Source: a virus. Taken from it: a stretch of DNA of 10,813 bases. The notes under the pieces are model-generated. The model saw only the letters and a program-made list of their open reading frames with translations, did not search any database and was not told the DNA's origin. Within the stretch, counting starts at the first letter, position 1. Each line of letters begins with the position of its first letter. The DNA is taken from the UHGV virus genome UHGV-0281911; one strand, written 5' to 3'. This document shows, piece after piece, positions 1,236-4,715 of the stretch. The position numbers were made by a program, and so were the translations under genes.

Positions 1236-1580
1236 TCAGAACTCTTCGATGTTCCAGCCACCACCTGCTTTCTTTGGTTTAACCGTTACCCCGATGATTC
1301 GGAACGGATACTGATCTGCGGCGACTTTGGTTTTCACCCTGGCGTCGTCGGTCCAGAAACCTTTCACTTCGTGCAGTTCCATCTCGCCGGTGGCGAGCAT
1401 CACAGCAAAATCGGGCGTATAGAACGTGTTGTCAGCTAATCGCAGCTTGATACCCTCAAATCGATACCAGGCGATTTCCCCTGCACGTTTACGCAGCTCA
1501 AGGTGCTGGCAATACGCAGATTCTGTTTTGTTCATCTGGCCTGTTTTGAGTCGACCAAGAGCCTGTATCTGTTTTCTCAT
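1236..1580 (-). CDS. Small phage protein, possibly DUF1064-like (putative PD-(D/E)XK-fold)
   Basis: 114-aa ORF. Upstream reads AGGGGTAAATT-ATG (Shine-Dalgarno-like) and a promoter/operator module sits directly 5'. Family assignment is from memory and unverified. Confidence 0.6.
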   Translation of the reverse strand: MRKQIQALGRLKTGQMNKTESAYCQHLELRKRAGEIAWYRFEGIKLRLADNTFYTPDFAVMLATGEMELHEVKGFWTDDARVKTKVAADQYPFRIIGVTVKPKKAGGGWNIEEF

Positions 1581-1697: not shown

Positions 1698-2474
1698 TTA
1701 CTTGATAAATCCTGCCGCCTTTCCCCGCCTGTATTCCTCCATCAGCCACTGCGCCGGTGTTATTCCCCCAAGGGTGGCGGCGTTAGGCATGCACCCGAAA
1801 CTTCGCCCTGGTGGATGGTAAACGTCTCTCCCTGTGTCCGGAGGCGTACTCATGGGTTCTGGCTTTGCCTGTATGCTGATCACCGGATCGGGTATCTGCT
1901 GTCCTGAAGCCACCTTTTTCGCCCAATCATCGAGCAGCCTGCGCGCGTGTTTCTCAACCTCAATCTCGCTAAGCTGGCGCTGATACATTGCACGGCGGGT
2001 ATCACATACGACCCAGTACATAACCGGGTGCCGCCACGGGAATCTTTCGGGACCACCAGGATATAAACTTTTTTCCTTGCTGTACCGGTGAAACTCTGCC
2101 ATCACATCGTCAATGGTGACGCCAAGAACCATCTTGCTGTCTTTACACCACTTGATGAATTGCCCTGGCGACGGCCAGAACGGAGACTCACTGGCGCGGG
2201 CGTGGCGCATACCAGCGTTAACCTGTTCCATTGTAGTGATCCCATTCTCCAGAAACGCAAGCATCCATTGCTTACGGAATTCATTAAGTTTGTTCTGCTC
2301 CCTTATGGTCGAAACGCTTGCGGGAAATGCAGCCTGTAACTGGACAAATAGTTCATTGAAAATTCTAGCGACCTGCTCCTTTTTGCCATTGCTGTCACGC
2401 CGCTCTTCATGCACAGCAACACCATGCTCACGTAAGCGATCGTACTCATTGAGAAGTTCTGGAGTTGATTTCAT
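1698..2474 (-). CDS. Replication protein P-like (DnaB helicase loader)
   Basis: 258 aa. The segment QVARIFNELFVQLQAAFPAS...WMLAFLENGITTMEQVNAGMRHAR...PSPGQFIKWC closely parallels lambda P as I remember it (QVAQIINGVFSQLLATFPAS...WVLAFRENGITTMEQVNAGMRVAR...PSPGQFVAWC). Lies directly downstream of the O-like gene. Confidence 0.85.
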   Translation of the reverse strand: MKSTPELLNEYDRLREHGVAVHEERRDSNGKKEQVARIFNELFVQLQAAFPASVSTIREQNKLNEFRKQWMLAFLENGITTMEQVNAGMRHARASESPFWPSPGQFIKWCKDSKMVLGVTIDDVMAEFHRYSKEKSLYPGGPERFPWRHPVMYWVVCDTRRAMYQRQLSEIEVEKHARRLLDDWAKKVASGQQIPDPVISIQAKPEPMSTPPDTGRDVYHPPGRSFGCMPNAATLGGITPAQWLMEEYRRGKAAGFIK

Positions 2475-3270
2475 CCCACACCCCTTCTATCCAGTCAGTG
2501 TTATTCCAGTCAAGCTCATCGCTTTTCCCGGCGTTTTTTGATTTTCCCCTGATATGATTTACGTGCCTGGCGAATTTTTGTTCCCACTGAACCTGCGTGA
2601 ACACTTTGCCCTCAGCCATCCAGTAATCCCGGAATGCAGCAAGTTCAGCAGGTGTAAATTCCGGTTCCGGCAGGGCCGTTCCCCACAGCGCAGCACGCCG
2701 TCGAAAATCCGGCGACGGATGCCAGCCATCGGTCATCGGAAATTTCCCGATGGGTTCACTCAGGCCATCCAGAAATTCAGGTTCAGCCACCTGCAACGGC
2801 ATACCGTTCGCTTCACTGGTCGGAGCACCCTCGCGCACGTGCGCTATGTGTGGGGTTTTATATATATCTTCCTCTTCCTCTGGTAACTCCTTTTGTAACG
2901 CTGTTGGCGTTACTTTTTGCGTTACTCGTTTTCGATGCTCTGCCACTCTTCTATTCGTAAGTGCACGTTTTTTCGATGATTCTCCATTGTGTCGCTCAAA
3001 GTTTGGAAGAATTAGTTTGCCGTCATGATAAGCAAGCCATCCGACGCTAATGAGGGCGTCAGCAAATCCTGTAATAAAAGCGAGTCTATCAAGTACTCCT
3101 TTTGTAACGCTGCCAGCGTTACCGTCTATTGTTTGCTGGTCAGCCCATGCCCATATACGAACCAGCTTTCCAAGAACAGCATCTGGATCAATACCCAGAA
3201 TTTCTGCTATCTGAAAAATTTCAGGTTTATCAGGAGTGATAACTTCAACCTTAATCCAGCTGCTTGCCAT
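2446..3270 (-). CDS. Phage replication initiator/organizer (O-like position) with DnaT-like C-terminal domain
   Basis: C-terminal GKFPMTDGWHPSPDFRRRAALWGTALPEPEFTPAELAAFRDYWMAEGKVFTQVQWEQKFARHV resembles E. coli DnaT C-terminus ([26 protein letters not shown]...[20 protein letters not shown]). Start placed at ATG 3270 (MASSWIKV) because AAGAGGGGAAACCT precedes it; the ORF-track start at 3288 has no Shine-Dalgarno. Confidence 0.8.
   Translation of the reverse strand: MASSWIKVEVITPDKPEIFQIAEILGIDPDAVLGKLVRIWAWADQQTIDGNAGSVTKGVLDRLAFITGFADALISVGWLAYHDGKLILPNFERHNGESSKKRALTNRRVAEHRKRVTQKVTPTALQKELPEEEEDIYKTPHIAHVREGAPTSEANGMPLQVAEPEFLDGLSEPIGKFPMTDGWHPSPDFRRRAALWGTALPEPEFTPAELAAFRDYWMAEGKVFTQVQWEQKFARHVNHIRGKSKNAGKSDELDWNNTDWIEGVWDEINSRTSQ
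2887..2913. repeat. Iteron-like repeat copy 1 (CTCCTTTTGTAACGCTGTTGGCGTTAC) inside the O-like gene
   Basis: Near-identical 27-bp copy at 3096-3122. Contains inverted arms GTAACGC/GCGTTAC, with a further GCGTTAC half-site at 2919-2925. Lies in the acidic linker-coding part of the gene beside an AT-rich stretch (ttttatatatatc). Confidence 0.5.
3096..3122. repeat. Iteron-like repeat copy 2 (CTCCTTTTGTAACGCTGCCAGCGTTAC), containing a perfect 19-bp palindrome GTAACGCTGCCAGCGTTAC
   Basis: Direct repeat of 2887-2913, 209 bp away. The two copies are translated in different reading frames of the same gene (VTPTALQKE versus NAGSVTKG), so conservation is at the DNA level. Confidence 0.5.
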
Positions 3271-3463
3271 AGGTTTCCCCTCTTGCACTCTTTAGTGCAC
3301 AAGCAAATTCATTACGATGGCGGTTGGCGCTATTCATTGCACATTCAACACATGTTCCGTTCAGAACATACCTTTCAGAGAGATGGCCGTGACGGCACCG
3401 CTTTCCTGTGAAATAGCGATTTAACCCGGCTTTTGCGGCCTCCATTCTGGTTACTATCTTCAA
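3251..3463 (-). CDS. Small zinc-ribbon protein (CxxC...CxxC) at the cII-equivalent position
   Basis: 70-aa ORF with CRHGH...CVEC motifs. The candidate TTG start at 3463 is preceded by AAGAGG with an 8-nt spacer; an alternative ATG start lies at 3445. Sits between the tR1-like terminator and the O-like gene. Confidence 0.5.
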   Translation of the reverse strand: MKIVTRMEAAKAGLNRYFTGKRCRHGHLSERYVLNGTCVECAMNSANRHRNEFACALKSARGETYGKQLD

Positions 3464-3541
3464 TTTTTCCGCCTCTTTTTGTTATTGATATTGGATATTT
3501 TGCACAATTGGAAAATTTGATCAACCAGATTTGGTTTTTTA

Positions 3542-3556
3542 TTACCTTTGAGGTAC
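3542..3556. promoter_or_regulatory. Isolated operator-like palindrome TTACCTTTGAGGTAC (one half-site imperfect)
   Basis: Matches the TTACC-N5-GGTAA motif found at the immunity region. Lies immediately promoter-distal to the tR1-like hairpin. Confidence 0.3.
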
Positions 3557-3570
3557 GAATAGATATGAAA

Positions 3571-3590
3571 AGACCGCCGGGTGGCGGTCT
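3571..3590 (-). terminator. tR1-like intrinsic terminator downstream of the cro-like gene
   Basis: Inverted repeat AGACCGCC-GGGT-GGCGGTCT. On the minus-strand transcript the stem is followed by UUUUCAU. Lies 21 nt after the cro-like stop. Confidence 0.45.
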
Positions 3591-3611
3591 ACAGAGGGTT
3601 GTAGCTGGATA

Positions 3612-3842
3612 TCATGAGTAGAAGAAGTATGCCAGTTCTGCTTTTGAGCGCAGCCATTGTCTTGTTTTACAGGCTTTAAAAAGCCCATTCATCAATACTT
3701 TACCTGGCATTTTGCGCTTACCTGTTAAGTGAGTCTGGATATAGTGACTCGTCGTTCCGGCTTCCTGTGCGAAGGCTTCACGCTCATCCGGAGTAAGTGC
3801 AAGCCAGTGCTTTTTGAAATCGAAATGTCCGTTATCGCTCAT
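3612..3842 (-). CDS. Cro-like small HTH regulator
   Basis: 76-aa ORF with an HTH-like segment (LTPDEREAFAQEAGTTSHYIQTHLTGKR). Divergent from the repressor gene across an operator-rich intergenic region and followed by a terminator and replication genes, as cro is in lambda. Confidence 0.7.
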   Translation of the reverse strand: MSDNGHFDFKKHWLALTPDEREAFAQEAGTTSHYIQTHLTGKRKMPGKVLMNGLFKACKTRQWLRSKAELAYFFYS

Positions 3843-3867: not shown

Positions 3868-3941
3868 ATAATAAATATTCACCCATAAGGTAACAAAAAT
3901 CAAGGATAGTTACCTATGAGGTGCATTTACCTGTTGGGTAA
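3868..3941. promoter_or_regulatory. OR-like region: three operator palindromes (3879-3893, 3910-3924, 3927-3941) with a PR-like promoter for cro on the minus strand; a weak PRM-like promoter for the repressor probably lies just downstream (about 3954-3982)
   Basis: Sites TCACCCATAAGGTAA, TTACCTATGAGGTGC, TTACCTGTTGGGTAA. The minus strand reads TTGTTA-17 bp-TATTAT (complement of 3891-3896 and 3868-3873), overlapping the first operator. Plus-strand candidate TTGAAT (3954-3959)-16 bp-TATGAG would give a near-leaderless repressor mRNA. Confidence 0.5.
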
Positions 3942-3996: not shown

Positions 3997-4581
3997 ATGA
4001 AAAGTATCCAGGACGTCCGCAGGCAAAATCTCAACGACTTGATCGACCGTGAATTCAATGGTGTTCAGACGCGGATGGCAGAAAAACTTGGAACTCAGGC
4101 AAATCTGGTAAACCGCTGGGCTCTTGGCAAGAAGGTTATCGGCGACCAGGTTGCGCGAAAAATTGAAGCTGCCGCCAATAAACCCCGTAACTGGCTTGAT
4201 ATCGATCGCTCGCTTTCTCAGGAGGGGTTTCAGCCTGTCGGCCCAAGCGACATTGGTCAGCTGGCGGCTCACAACCTGGAACGCTGGATGAGCGAAAGCC
4301 GCGACCTTTCAACGCAGGGAAAACTACACCGCGCATCCGGCGTCGCCCAGGTGACAATCAGCCGCCTGTTAAACAATGAAGTCAGCGTTTCCATTTCCAC
4401 CCTGGAGAATGTTGCATCCGCATTCGGGCGTCACGGCTATGAATTACTGATTCACCCGCACGACCCTGCGACTATCAACTATGACCGCTCGCGCTACGCA
4501 TTGTTACCCGAAACAGAGAAGGCAAAGATCGAAAGTTACATTGAATTTGTCATCAGCCAGAACGAAAGAAGCAAACAATAA
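3997..4581 (+). CDS. CI-like prophage repressor with two HTH (XRE-like) domains and no recognisable S24 peptidase domain
   Basis: 194 aa. N-terminal HTH QTRMAEKLGTQANLVNRWALGKK and a second HTH-like segment ASGVAQVTISRLLNNEVSVSISTLENVASAFG. I see no Ala-Gly/Ser-Lys LexA-like cleavage module. Divergent from cro-like and followed by a strong terminator. Confidence 0.8.
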   Translation: MKSIQDVRRQNLNDLIDREFNGVQTRMAEKLGTQANLVNRWALGKKVIGDQVARKIEAAANKPRNWLDIDRSLSQEGFQPVGPSDIGQLAAHNLERWMSESRDLSTQGKLHRASGVAQVTISRLLNNEVSVSISTLENVASAFGRHGYELLIHPHDPATINYDRSRYALLPETEKAKIESYIEFVISQNERSKQ

Positions 4582-4638: not shown

Positions 4639-4715
4639 TTACCTTATGGGTAATTTTTTTAACTCATATCTATTGACATCAAACCAAATACGCATAATTA
4701 TTACCTCAACGGTAA
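4639..4715 (+). promoter_or_regulatory. PL-like early promoter module: operator (4639-4653), -35 TTGACA (4673-4678), -10 AATTAT (4696-4701), operator (4701-4715)
   Basis: Perfect -35 hexamer with 17-bp spacing to an A/T-rich -10, flanked by TTACCTTATGGGTAA and TTACCTCAACGGTAA, which are 62 bp apart. Drives the plus-strand recombination operon. Confidence 0.55.

Follow-up and report, generated by a model that had tools for sequence, protein, structure and literature searches.

The stretch of phage DNA analysed here (10.8 kb in full, referred to as the window) carries two near-identical 28-nt repeats inside the gene for a replication initiator, raising the question of what keeps the same DNA at two places in one coding sequence. 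A preliminary description of the locus had read them as a probable replication origin. Our analysis indicates that the repeats are real and strongly conserved and, judging from sequence comparisons, that they are protein-binding sites most likely forming the phage origin. Positions 2856–3122 probably serve a lambdoid, TL-2011b-like E. coli prophage as its vegetative replication origin, set within the initiator gene itself. Such a placement has been a textbook principle since lambda. As the same principle would be at work here, the result is useful but unsurprising, and the gain is one of annotation and detail rather than of concept.

The repeats lie in the first of two neighbouring replication genes:

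2446–3270, minus strand: replication initiator gene, 274 aa, defined by its open reading frame and translation
1698–2474, minus strand: helicase-loader gene, matching Pfam Phage_lambda_P (PF06992, 1.7e-55) and labelled 'replication protein P' in RefSeq

The loader gene is the next gene after that of the initiator and overlaps its stop by 29 nt. The initiator begins with MASSWIK, as do its homologues, and matches PHROG 2509 'replication initiation protein' at 2.6e-127. The preliminary description had called the gene 'O-like', which is apt for its role but not for its family: Pfam scans of the whole initiator, of its N-domain (E up to 10) and of 23 family members (E up to 1) returned no Phage_rep_O match. 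The N-domain of the protein spans aa 1 to ∼119 and is joined by an acidic linker (PEEEED) to a DnaT-like domain at the C-terminus (Pfam DnaT, PF17948, aa 177–247, 6.4e-19). The protein carries the RefSeq label 'DnaT-like ssDNA-binding domain-containing protein'. Identity with primosomal DnaT was rejected, as NF002770 scored 93.6 bits against a cut-off of 201 and covered only aa 169–250. The initiator thus shares the PF17948 DNA-binding domain with DnaT without being DnaT.

The N-domain, which has no Pfam, NCBIfam or PDB sequence match, is predicted to be winged-helix-like. Its structural model (pLDDT 71.7) has a helix-helix-hairpin core, with helices up to aa 119, and the low-rmsd PDB matches of this model are winged-helix domains. 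Matches to viral folds (BFVD) included 'replisome organizer' proteins (E 3e-4, and 0.05 for that of phage Abc2). By sequence, one of 23 family members matched PF09681 (Phage_rep_org_N), at a non-significant E of 0.11.

Within the initiator coding sequence, the following features were delimited:

2886–2913: first copy of the 28-nt repeat, ACTCCTTTTGTAACGCTGTTGGCGTTAC, noted in the preliminary description
3095–3122: second copy of the 28-nt repeat, ACTCCTTTTGTAACGCTGCCAGCGTTAC, a palindrome plus the flank CTCCTTTT, likewise noted
3104–3122: cluster A, GTAACGC-TGCCA-GCGTTAC, gene nt 149–167, coding for G-N-A-G-S-V-T; putative initiator dimer site
2883–2925: cluster B, a nested 43-bp dyad of four half-sites at 12-bp spacing, with its core palindrome at 2895–2913
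Half-sites of cluster B: 2883–2889 GTAACTC (one mismatch), 2895–2901 GTAACGC, 2907–2913 GCGTTAC and 2919–2925 GCGTTAC
2856–2882: AT-rich polypurine/polypyrimidine tract, CAGAGGAAGAGGAAGATATATATAAAA on the gene strand, coding for PEEEEDIYK; candidate DNA unwinding element

The repeat pair holds up as reported: 25 of 28 positions are identical, the starts are 209 bp apart and the three mismatches all fall within a 5-nt spacer. Each copy had also been described as an inverted repeat, and does contain a perfect 19-bp palindrome, GTAACGC-N5-GCGTTAC (2895–2913 and 3104–3122), which has no further match in the window even at three mismatches. The half-site GCGTTAC/GTAACGC occurs seven times in 10.8 kb against an expectation of 0.98, a count reached by none of 200 shuffles, and five of the seven fall within 2895–3122. 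The third half-site said to follow the first copy was located at 2919–2925, while the one-mismatch fourth at 2883–2889 goes beyond the earlier account. It is these third and fourth half-sites that make cluster B a nested 43-bp dyad and, with the conserved polypurine tract described below, make the element larger than first described.

The term 'iteron-like' fits in part only. The sites are indeed repeated, but they form palindromic dyads in two separated clusters rather than a tandem direct array. There is no tandem array of four or more contiguous iterons; instead, two full palindromes stand 209 bp apart, with cluster B amounting to two dyad-sized sites. Scanning the window for repeats revealed no other cluster of this kind, and the three matches to the DnaA box at up to one mismatch are at chance level, with none inside the initiator gene. 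The two copies are read in different frames, as had been claimed: 3122–3095 encodes G-N-A-G-S-V-T-K-G (aa 50–58) and 2913–2886 encodes V-T-P-T-A-L-Q-K-E (aa 120–128), and the spacing of 209 (3n+2) matches the frame difference.

Selection acting on the DNA itself, which the preliminary description had deduced from these differing translations, is borne out in close relatives. The sample comprised 47 distinct N-terminal coding sequences (80 IMG/VR loci at 88–100% amino acid identity; the scans yielded 531 and 581 IMG/VR relatives, and the best 80 per scan were taken). Outside the palindrome arms 104/123 third codon positions varied, compared with only 1/8 inside them (Fisher p=4e-5); across all arm sites 2/28 varied, compared with 156/365 elsewhere (p=9e-5). 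With ∼85% of third positions outside the arms varying, change has reached saturation elsewhere in the gene. The cluster A palindrome is invariant among the 47 relatives, synonymous positions included. In the core of cluster B the arms are invariant and the 5-nt spacer is free, the encoded VT-xx-AL occurring with 11 different xx pairs. Nor is the sequence tied to one reading frame: cluster B is read as VTxxAL in the window's lineage and as GNAxSVT, in the frame of cluster A, in Rac-442/2 and CBW1004C. Comparison with related prophages, as earlier proposed, found the palindrome arms conserved in 47 relatives and both clusters kept in the family. Arms frozen at synonymous positions are what an origin sitting in coding DNA would produce, and the locus offers an example of dual coding in which the same DNA is tolerated in two frames.

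The AT-rich stretch that had been reported nearby corresponds to 2856–2882 (TTTTATATATATCTTCCTCTTCCTCTG), where duplex stability is at its lowest in the initiator gene for segments of 20 and of 40 nt. Its 20-nt window has a dG of −20.4 kcal/mol (z 2.68 versus the whole window). Speaking against the origin reading, the tract is short, ranks 8th among the least stable 20-nt segments of the window and is only moderately extreme relative to intergenic DNA. TRF identified (TCTTCC)2.5 at 2867–2881. Together, cluster B and the tract encode aa 116–138, between the modelled N-domain and the DnaT-like domain.

The same layout recurs across the family. Fifteen homologues were sampled, from phages of Escherichia, Enterobacter, Klebsiella, Salmonella, Xanthomonas/Xylella, Ralstonia, Pseudomonas, Aeromonas and Vibrio. 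In each gene, the 7-mer with the highest copy number (tied for first in SPN1S and Vibrio 1.211.B) is grouped at two places: gene nt 55–100 or 140–200, within the N-domain coding part, and nt 335–410, immediately ahead of the linker. In all 15, moreover, the least stable 25-nt window of the gene directly follows cluster B and is a (GAGAA/GAAGA)n tract, and this conserved polypurine tract is translated to different amino acids among the homologues. All 81 SPN1S-lineage loci examined keep both clusters, in a > > < < arrangement like that of cluster B here and with a sequence different from that of the window; this lineage was scored by motif-position counts, since indels at cluster B upset the ungapped synonymous-site test.

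The sequence of the sites covaries with that of the N-domain. The half-site is GTAACGC where N-domain identity is at least 48%, and GTCCGC, GTCACGC, TGTCACA or GTAGACG in remoter lineages. Across phages of six host genera, these five motif classes follow N-domain similarity, and not the neighbouring genes or the C-terminal/loader module. SPN1S and BUCT711 have cro-like, cI-like, orf70 and DUF1064 genes in common with the window, yet carry GTCCGC sites; Rac-442/2, Xanthomonas and Ralstonia YL1 have only the N-domain in common with it and carry GTAACGC sites. A mosaic joint at ∼2866, at the same place as the junction of N-domain and C-domain, indicates that the N-domain and both site clusters are inherited as one module, apart from the C-domain and loader. 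Among plasmids, the N-module was found on only one, a 52-kb untyped 'plasmid' that carries Mu-like genes as well and is therefore uninformative.

Both the replication activity of the region and the binding of its sites by the initiator are inferred from sequence. Dimers of the N-domain would bind the GTAACGC-N5-GCGTTAC dyads, both in cluster A, 209 bp upstream, and in the four-half-site cluster B, as the covariation and the synonymous-site conservation suggest. By analogy, the two bound clusters might then meet, bending or looping the ∼190 bp between them into an O-some-like nucleoprotein complex. This step is speculative because the spacing varies by lineage (209, 207, 231, 279 and 289 bp) and does not in every case correspond to full helical turns; with a range of 207–289 bp, constant helical phasing between the clusters is not supported. 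The resulting stress may melt the adjoining polypurine/AT tract (2856–2882), for which stability and conservation were computed. Finally, the DnaT-like C-domain and the lambda-P-family protein encoded next door could, given their family membership, recruit the host DnaB helicase.

Covariation and conservation point to binding by the initiator but are silent on its purpose. The palindromes might instead serve control (autoregulation, a transcription roadblock or handcuffing-type copy control) with opening elsewhere, or cluster B and the tract might form the origin while cluster A is purely regulatory. Such a role would suit the 190 bp that separate cluster A from the AT tract, the shift of its gene position by lineage (nt 149 versus nt 55) and the extra sites found upstream of the gene in some lineages (a full palindrome at −32 in Rac-442/2; single half-sites at −59 or −118 in the Klebsiella-type). 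We nevertheless regard it as unlikely. Cluster B always adjoins the least stable, conserved polypurine tract, which is the classic origin layout, and the window has no other repeat cluster of such a kind. The sole other repeated palindrome family, TTACC-N5-GGTAA, has seven copies, all of them between genes, and corresponds to the site annotated for the repressor in epsilon15. These are the immunity operators of the phage, so the GTAACGC palindromes were rejected as repressor operators. This also weakens the broader suggestion, decidedly improbable in our view, that another protein binds the sites with the initiator uninvolved, be it a host factor or a phage regulator (a repressor, a Cro-like protein or the product of a small upstream ORF). 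Many dimeric regulators do typically have palindromic sites of such a length. However, the initiator N-domain is the only coding element within 1.5 kb common to the loci with GTAACGC sites, and loci with the window's cro-like, cI-like, orf70 and DUF1064 genes but a divergent N-domain have different sites. A host factor, for its part, fails to account for five motifs, two of them among enterobacterial phages.

There is a very slight chance that the palindromes function through hairpin formation, for instance in terminating antisense transcripts or structuring mRNA, and not as protein sites. A plus-strand scan flags both as terminator-like, with TTTTTGCGTT after the copy at 2895–2913, and the single strands fold better than shuffles (z −3.8 to −4.5). 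However, the arms hold their exact sequence with no compensatory changes, and a simple hairpin leaves the solitary half-sites at 12-bp spacing unexplained. The window has no Rfam match, and the gene contains no plus-strand promoter-like site, the only one (3588–3615) lying downstream for plus-strand transcription. An intrinsic terminator was rejected specifically: the scan flags the sites on the antisense strand, but the arms are conserved as sequence and the T-run after the hairpin is not kept in the GTCCGC lineage. Chance similarity, or the neutral remains of an old internal duplication, is effectively refuted. In some relatives both copies code for GNAxSVT, a hint that one cluster was duplicated from the other, but in 10.8 kb a 25/28 match far exceeds what chance would give, the half-site count exceeds that of every shuffle, and a neutral remnant is not expected to be invariant at synonymous sites while 85% of other third positions vary. 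Nor would it explain the parallel replacement of the motif at both clusters in other lineages.

An origin within the initiator gene is thus the best explanation, and it may be general. The paper library searched for ydaU, oriJ, DnaT-domain phage initiators and epsilon15 origins yielded no account of an origin in, or experiment on, this initiator family. We tentatively suggest, as a possibility somewhat short of even, that this large family, with its Pfam-unassigned N-domain, has an undescribed split origin in phages of Enterobacteria, Xanthomonas, Ralstonia, Pseudomonas, Aeromonas and Vibrio. Two lineage-specific dyad clusters inside the initiator coding sequence, 200–290 bp apart, would be brought together by the initiator, with a (GAGAA)n unwinding tract common to all lineages whatever their site specificity, C-domain or loader. 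If true, this would be a modular design in which specificity is exchangeable and a shared melting element doubles as the recombination joint. In practical terms, the analysis gives a sequence-level origin prediction for a module present in ∼2% of complete E. coli genomes (113/5426, counting those with 80% or more of the gene), and in numerous temperate phages that infect plant and animal pathogens. In all these genomes the gene has no annotation beyond 'DnaT-like' or 'hypothetical'. The analysis also provides a portable rule for this initiator family: where the commonest 7-mer of the gene forms two clusters and a polypurine tract comes after the second, a candidate origin is marked. The same rule predicts which phages are replication-compatible or cross-interfering.

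The closest parallel is the lambda origin, with iterons and an AT-rich tract in the middle of gene O and P downstream (PMC7466680). Like the candidate origin here, that of lambda falls within its initiator gene, where the DNA-binding N-domain meets the C-domain; its binding sites are ∼19 bp with dyad symmetry, and an AT-rich tract directly follows them in the gene direction, with a lambda P family gene next. The part of lambda O encoded by the origin is likewise a variable linker. However, the present initiator lacks a lambda O Pfam match and has a DnaT-like C-domain. Its sites form two clusters 209 bp apart (a dyad and a nested four-half-site dyad) rather than the 4–6 tandem iterons of lambda and Stx phages (six in Stx origins), and the upstream cluster lies inside the sequence coding for the DNA-binding domain itself. 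The unwinding candidate also differs, being a (GAAGAG)n polypurine tract conserved across lineages of differing site specificity.

The replisome organiser G38P of the Bacillus phage SPP1 binds repeats in oriL within its own gene and then recruits the loader and helicase. In fold, the N-domain model retrieves 'replisome organizer' proteins, as noted above; in sequence there is no significant match to PF09681, and the host range, site sequences and C-terminal partners differ. In the iteron plasmids P1 (incC/incA), F and R6K, the initiators are winged-helix proteins whose specific repeats are grouped in separate clusters around the rep gene and interact by looping or handcuffing. Those clusters are made up of direct repeats and lie on either side of the gene, whereas here both are dyads inside the coding sequence.

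Among Rac-like elements, that of E. coli 442/2 encodes a YdaU with an N-domain 66% identical to that of the window's initiator. Its ydaU has GTAACGC palindromes at the same two places and a third one upstream, and a homologue of this type in a RefSeq E. coli genome is named 'phage replication initiator YdaU family protein'. Rac has been reported to have an active origin, oriJ (PMC3945230). In K-12 Rac, from which oriJ plasmids derive, YdaU has an N-domain of the unrelated DUF1376 type, none of the GTAACGC sites and a partner that is DnaC-like, not P-like; K-12 oriJ was therefore ruled out as experimental support for the present origin. Finally, the DopC/DopE genes of Cellvibrionales and Oceanospirillales are domesticated O- and P-like genes and share the two-gene design seen here: the first encodes an O-like protein that ends in a DnaT motif, the second a member of the lambda P family (PMC5509034). 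The N-domain of DopC is of the HTH_36 type, and its authors found no iteron-like sequences in it, whereas the phage gene carries conserved site clusters. The phage module described here could thus be of the kind from which DopC/DopE-type genes derive, with the origin still in place.

The locus of the repeats shares 98–99% identity over 2400–3500 with Escherichia phage TL-2011b and its temperate relatives of podovirus type, and prophages on several E. coli chromosomes match 2446–3300 at 100% identity. Of 5,426 complete genomes, 113 contain 80% or more of the initiator gene. All local genes are on the minus strand except the cI-like HTH gene:

3997–4581, plus strand, cI-like HTH gene, divergent from the other local genes
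3612–3842, minus strand, cro-like gene
3571–3590, minus strand, terminator-like hairpin between the cro-like gene and orf70
3251–3463, minus strand, orf70, a 70-aa ORF matching PHROG 1081 (unknown function)
2446–3270, minus strand, replication initiator (PHROG 2509)
1698–2474, minus strand, true lambda P family member downstream of the initiator (1.7e-55)
1236–1580, minus strand, DUF1064 gene

The open reading frame orf70, directly upstream of the initiator and overlapping its start by 20 nt, is kept in BUCT554, Klebsiella phi3.2, SPN1S, epsilon15 and BUCT711 and missing from Rac-type and Xanthomonas loci. The strong hairpin (AGACCGCCACCCGGCGGTCT then TTTCATATCT) corresponds in position to lambda tR1, ahead of the replication genes. 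A single perfect DnaA box (TTATCCACA) is intergenic at 1187–1195, downstream of the DUF1064 gene; across the window, DnaA-box-like sites show no excess over the chance count.

The 274-aa initiator matches PHROG 2509 ‘replication initiation protein’ (2.6e-127), and its C-terminal part carries PF17948, the DnaT DNA-binding domain, at residues 177–247 (6.4e-19); over its full length, the protein scores far under the DnaT equivalog cut-off. The N-terminal 130 aa had no Pfam, NCBIfam or PDB sequence match. An AlphaFold2 model of the N-domain from 23 sequences (pLDDT 71.7) predicts four helices, a beta hairpin and a long basic helix. Searched against a viral structure library, it matched, behind true homologues, ‘replisome organizer’ proteins (E 3e-4, 0.05) and DnaD-like proteins, with weak hits to the DUF1376 family. 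Because the N-domain has no family match and the C-domain is DnaT-like, the term ‘O-like’ used in the preliminary description stands for role and layout, but not for membership of the lambda O family. A shared tail, ...(S/D)(A/E)IPPGFRG, ends the initiators of Rac-442/2 (the Rac-like element of E. coli 442/2), 673R7, Klebsiella phi3.2 and SPN1S, homologues whose C-domains differ; its Aeromonas counterpart is KPPGFN, and the window initiator is without it. This tail resembles a short motif by which a replication protein of the host could be docked.

The preliminary description had reported a repeat within this gene, and the two 28-nt copies (2886–2913 and 3095–3122, 209 bp apart) are indeed identical at 25 of 28 positions. 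Each contains the perfect palindrome GTAACGC-N5-GCGTTAC, as had been proposed, with all three differences in the palindrome spacer. The window holds seven half-sites (GTAACGC/GCGTTAC) against ~1 expected, a count reached in none of 200 shuffles, and five fall in 2895–3122. As the spacing is 3n+2, the copies of this minus-strand gene are read in different frames (GNAGSVTKG at aa 50–58, VTPTALQKE at aa 120–128), again as described. The third half-site lies at 2919–2925, and a fourth with one mismatch (2883–2889) completes a nested 43-bp dyad, termed cluster B, with half-sites 12 bp apart and A/T-run spacers; the palindrome at 3104–3122 is cluster A. The AT-rich stretch, at 2856–2882, has the lowest duplex stability in the gene, over 20 nt as well as over 40 nt. 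All statements previously made from the sequence were thus correct.

It had also been claimed that selection acts on the DNA itself. The best 80 IMG/VR loci listed (88–100% aa identity in the N-domain) and two phage records collapsed to 47 distinct 393-nt coding sequences, in which variable third-codon positions numbered 1 of 8 in the palindrome arms and 104 of 123 outside (Fisher p=4e-5), bearing out the claim. Over all codon positions, 2/28 were variable in the arms and 156/365 elsewhere (p=9e-5). In the cluster B palindrome, the 5-nt spacer is unconstrained, with eleven different xx pairs in the peptide VT-xx-AL. The extra half-site differs by lineage (window, gene nt 346; Klebsiella, nt 382), yet is always 12 bp from the core. 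In Rac-442/2 and CBW1004C, clusters A and B share one frame (GNAxSVT), whereas the window lineage reads cluster B in another frame than cluster A. What is conserved at the sites is the DNA, not its reading frame.

In a survey of 15 homologues, drawn from phages that infect nine host genera, the commonest strand-collapsed 7-mer of each gene forms two clusters, at gene nt 55–100 or 140–200 and at nt 335–410; in SPN1S and Vibrio 1.211.B it only shares first rank:

GTAACGC: window, BUCT554, Klebsiella phi3.2, Rac-442/2, Xanthomonas/Xylella phages, Ralstonia YL1, CBW1004C
GTCCGC: SPN1S, epsilon15, BUCT711, phiPSA1
GTCACGC: Aeromonas pAEv1818
TGTCACA: Vibrio 1.211.B
GTAGACG: Ralstonia Raharianne

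The only part that the GTAACGC loci have in common with the window is the N-domain, at 48% identity or higher. SPN1S and BUCT711 carry the window’s cro-like, cI-like, orf70 and DUF1064 genes; their N-domain is 33–35% identical to the window’s and their sites are GTCCGC. On this comparative evidence the motif follows the initiator N-domain, the natural swap separating the candidate binders. In the SPN1S lineage (relatives with GTCCGC sites), both clusters are kept in 81/81 loci among the matches listed, with half-sites at 55, 66, 79, 101 and 334, 345, 358, 369, each cluster arranged > > < < like window cluster B.

The C-domain and loader vary freely among homologues (DnaT-like with P, Rac-type with DnaC-like, or DnaB next) and megablast matches break at a mosaic joint, ~2866, inside the AT tract; therefore, the N-domain and both clusters travel as one module. 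The matches to BUCT554 and Klebsiella phi3.2 cover 2867–3270 only, the N-module including the two site clusters; that to an Actinobacillus phage covers 2547–2865 only, the DnaT-like C-module. From these matches, the linker/unwinding tract seems to double as a recombination joint between modules. The N-module also occurs at 84% identity in pE16EC1016-8 (CP088505.1), a 52-kb E. coli ‘plasmid’ with Mu-like transposase genes and no replicon type in PLSDB, which could be a phage-plasmid or circularised prophage with the N-module as replicon.

Directly after cluster B (gene nt 380–424), each of the 15 homologues has the least stable 25-nt segment of its entire gene, a polypurine tract (CAGAGAAGAGAAGAGAAGAGAAGAT-type, then A/T) that is the candidate unwinding element. 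Lineages whose sites differ share this tract at the DNA level, and its translation differs (PEEEEDIYK in the window, REEKRREDLKDK in SPN1S). Within the window lineage it has four to eleven Glu codons; the length-variable part is a (GAAGAG)n run (2867–2881 in the window) coding an acidic linker, a pattern that suggests slippage in the tract beside the putative origin.

Chance or neutral duplication is excluded as the source of the repeats. Binding by a protein other than the initiator is unlikely: the natural swap ties the sites to the initiator N-domain, and the probable immunity operators are a different, intergenic palindrome, TTACC-N5-GGTAA. That the palindromes act as a hairpin or terminator is likewise unlikely, since it is the sequence of the arms that is conserved, some half-sites stand alone, the T-run is not preserved and an Rfam search gave no match. 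To a control-only role of the sites, especially of cluster A, we give a low but real probability.

TTACC-N5-GGTAA occurs seven times in the window (0.19 expected, at most 1 mismatch), at 1584–1598, 1646–1660, 3542–3556, 3879–3893, 3927–3941, 4639–4653 and 4701–4715. All copies are intergenic, in the cI-like/cro-like, cro-like/orf70 and P-like/DUF1064 gaps and downstream of the cI-like gene. Since the palindrome matches the annotated ‘repressor’ protein_bind site of epsilon15 (ATTACCAAAAGGGTAAT), these are probably immunity operators.

The earlier interpretation of the repeats as a replication origin inside the initiator gene has strong comparative support. N-domain dimers would occupy the dyads and draw clusters A and B together, the adjoining polypurine/AT tract would open, and the DnaT-like domain and P-family protein would deliver host DnaB. 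Observation here covers site conservation, covariation and the stability profile only; we infer binding, looping, melting and loading from lambda (PMC7466680) and the family names. A literature search of incomplete coverage found no description of this initiator family’s origin. The principle is already known; the split-cluster layout is worth testing.

We rejected K-12 Rac oriJ as a direct precedent, since the N-domain of K-12 YdaU is unrelated to that of the window protein. The K-12 record NC_000913.3 has no annotated oriJ feature. K-12 ydaU (1421119–1421976) encodes a DUF1376 N-domain, but the same C-domain as Rac-442/2 YdaU; its top 7-mer, TGTTCAA, has 4 copies, at nt 149 and nt 393–452, and the gene may have a comparable two-cluster layout. 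Cellvibrionales DopC/DopE share the DnaT-C plus P design but are without iterons (PMC5509034). The closest known system is ori-lambda with O and P. The likeness to lambda proposed at the outset, an origin inside the gene, goes further: in both, the sites are dyads of ~19 bp at a domain junction, an AT-rich tract flanks them, and the partner protein is P. In contrast to ori-lambda, the domain families of the window initiator differ, the sites are split into two clusters, one inside the DNA-binding-domain coding sequence, and the window family has a conserved polypurine tract.
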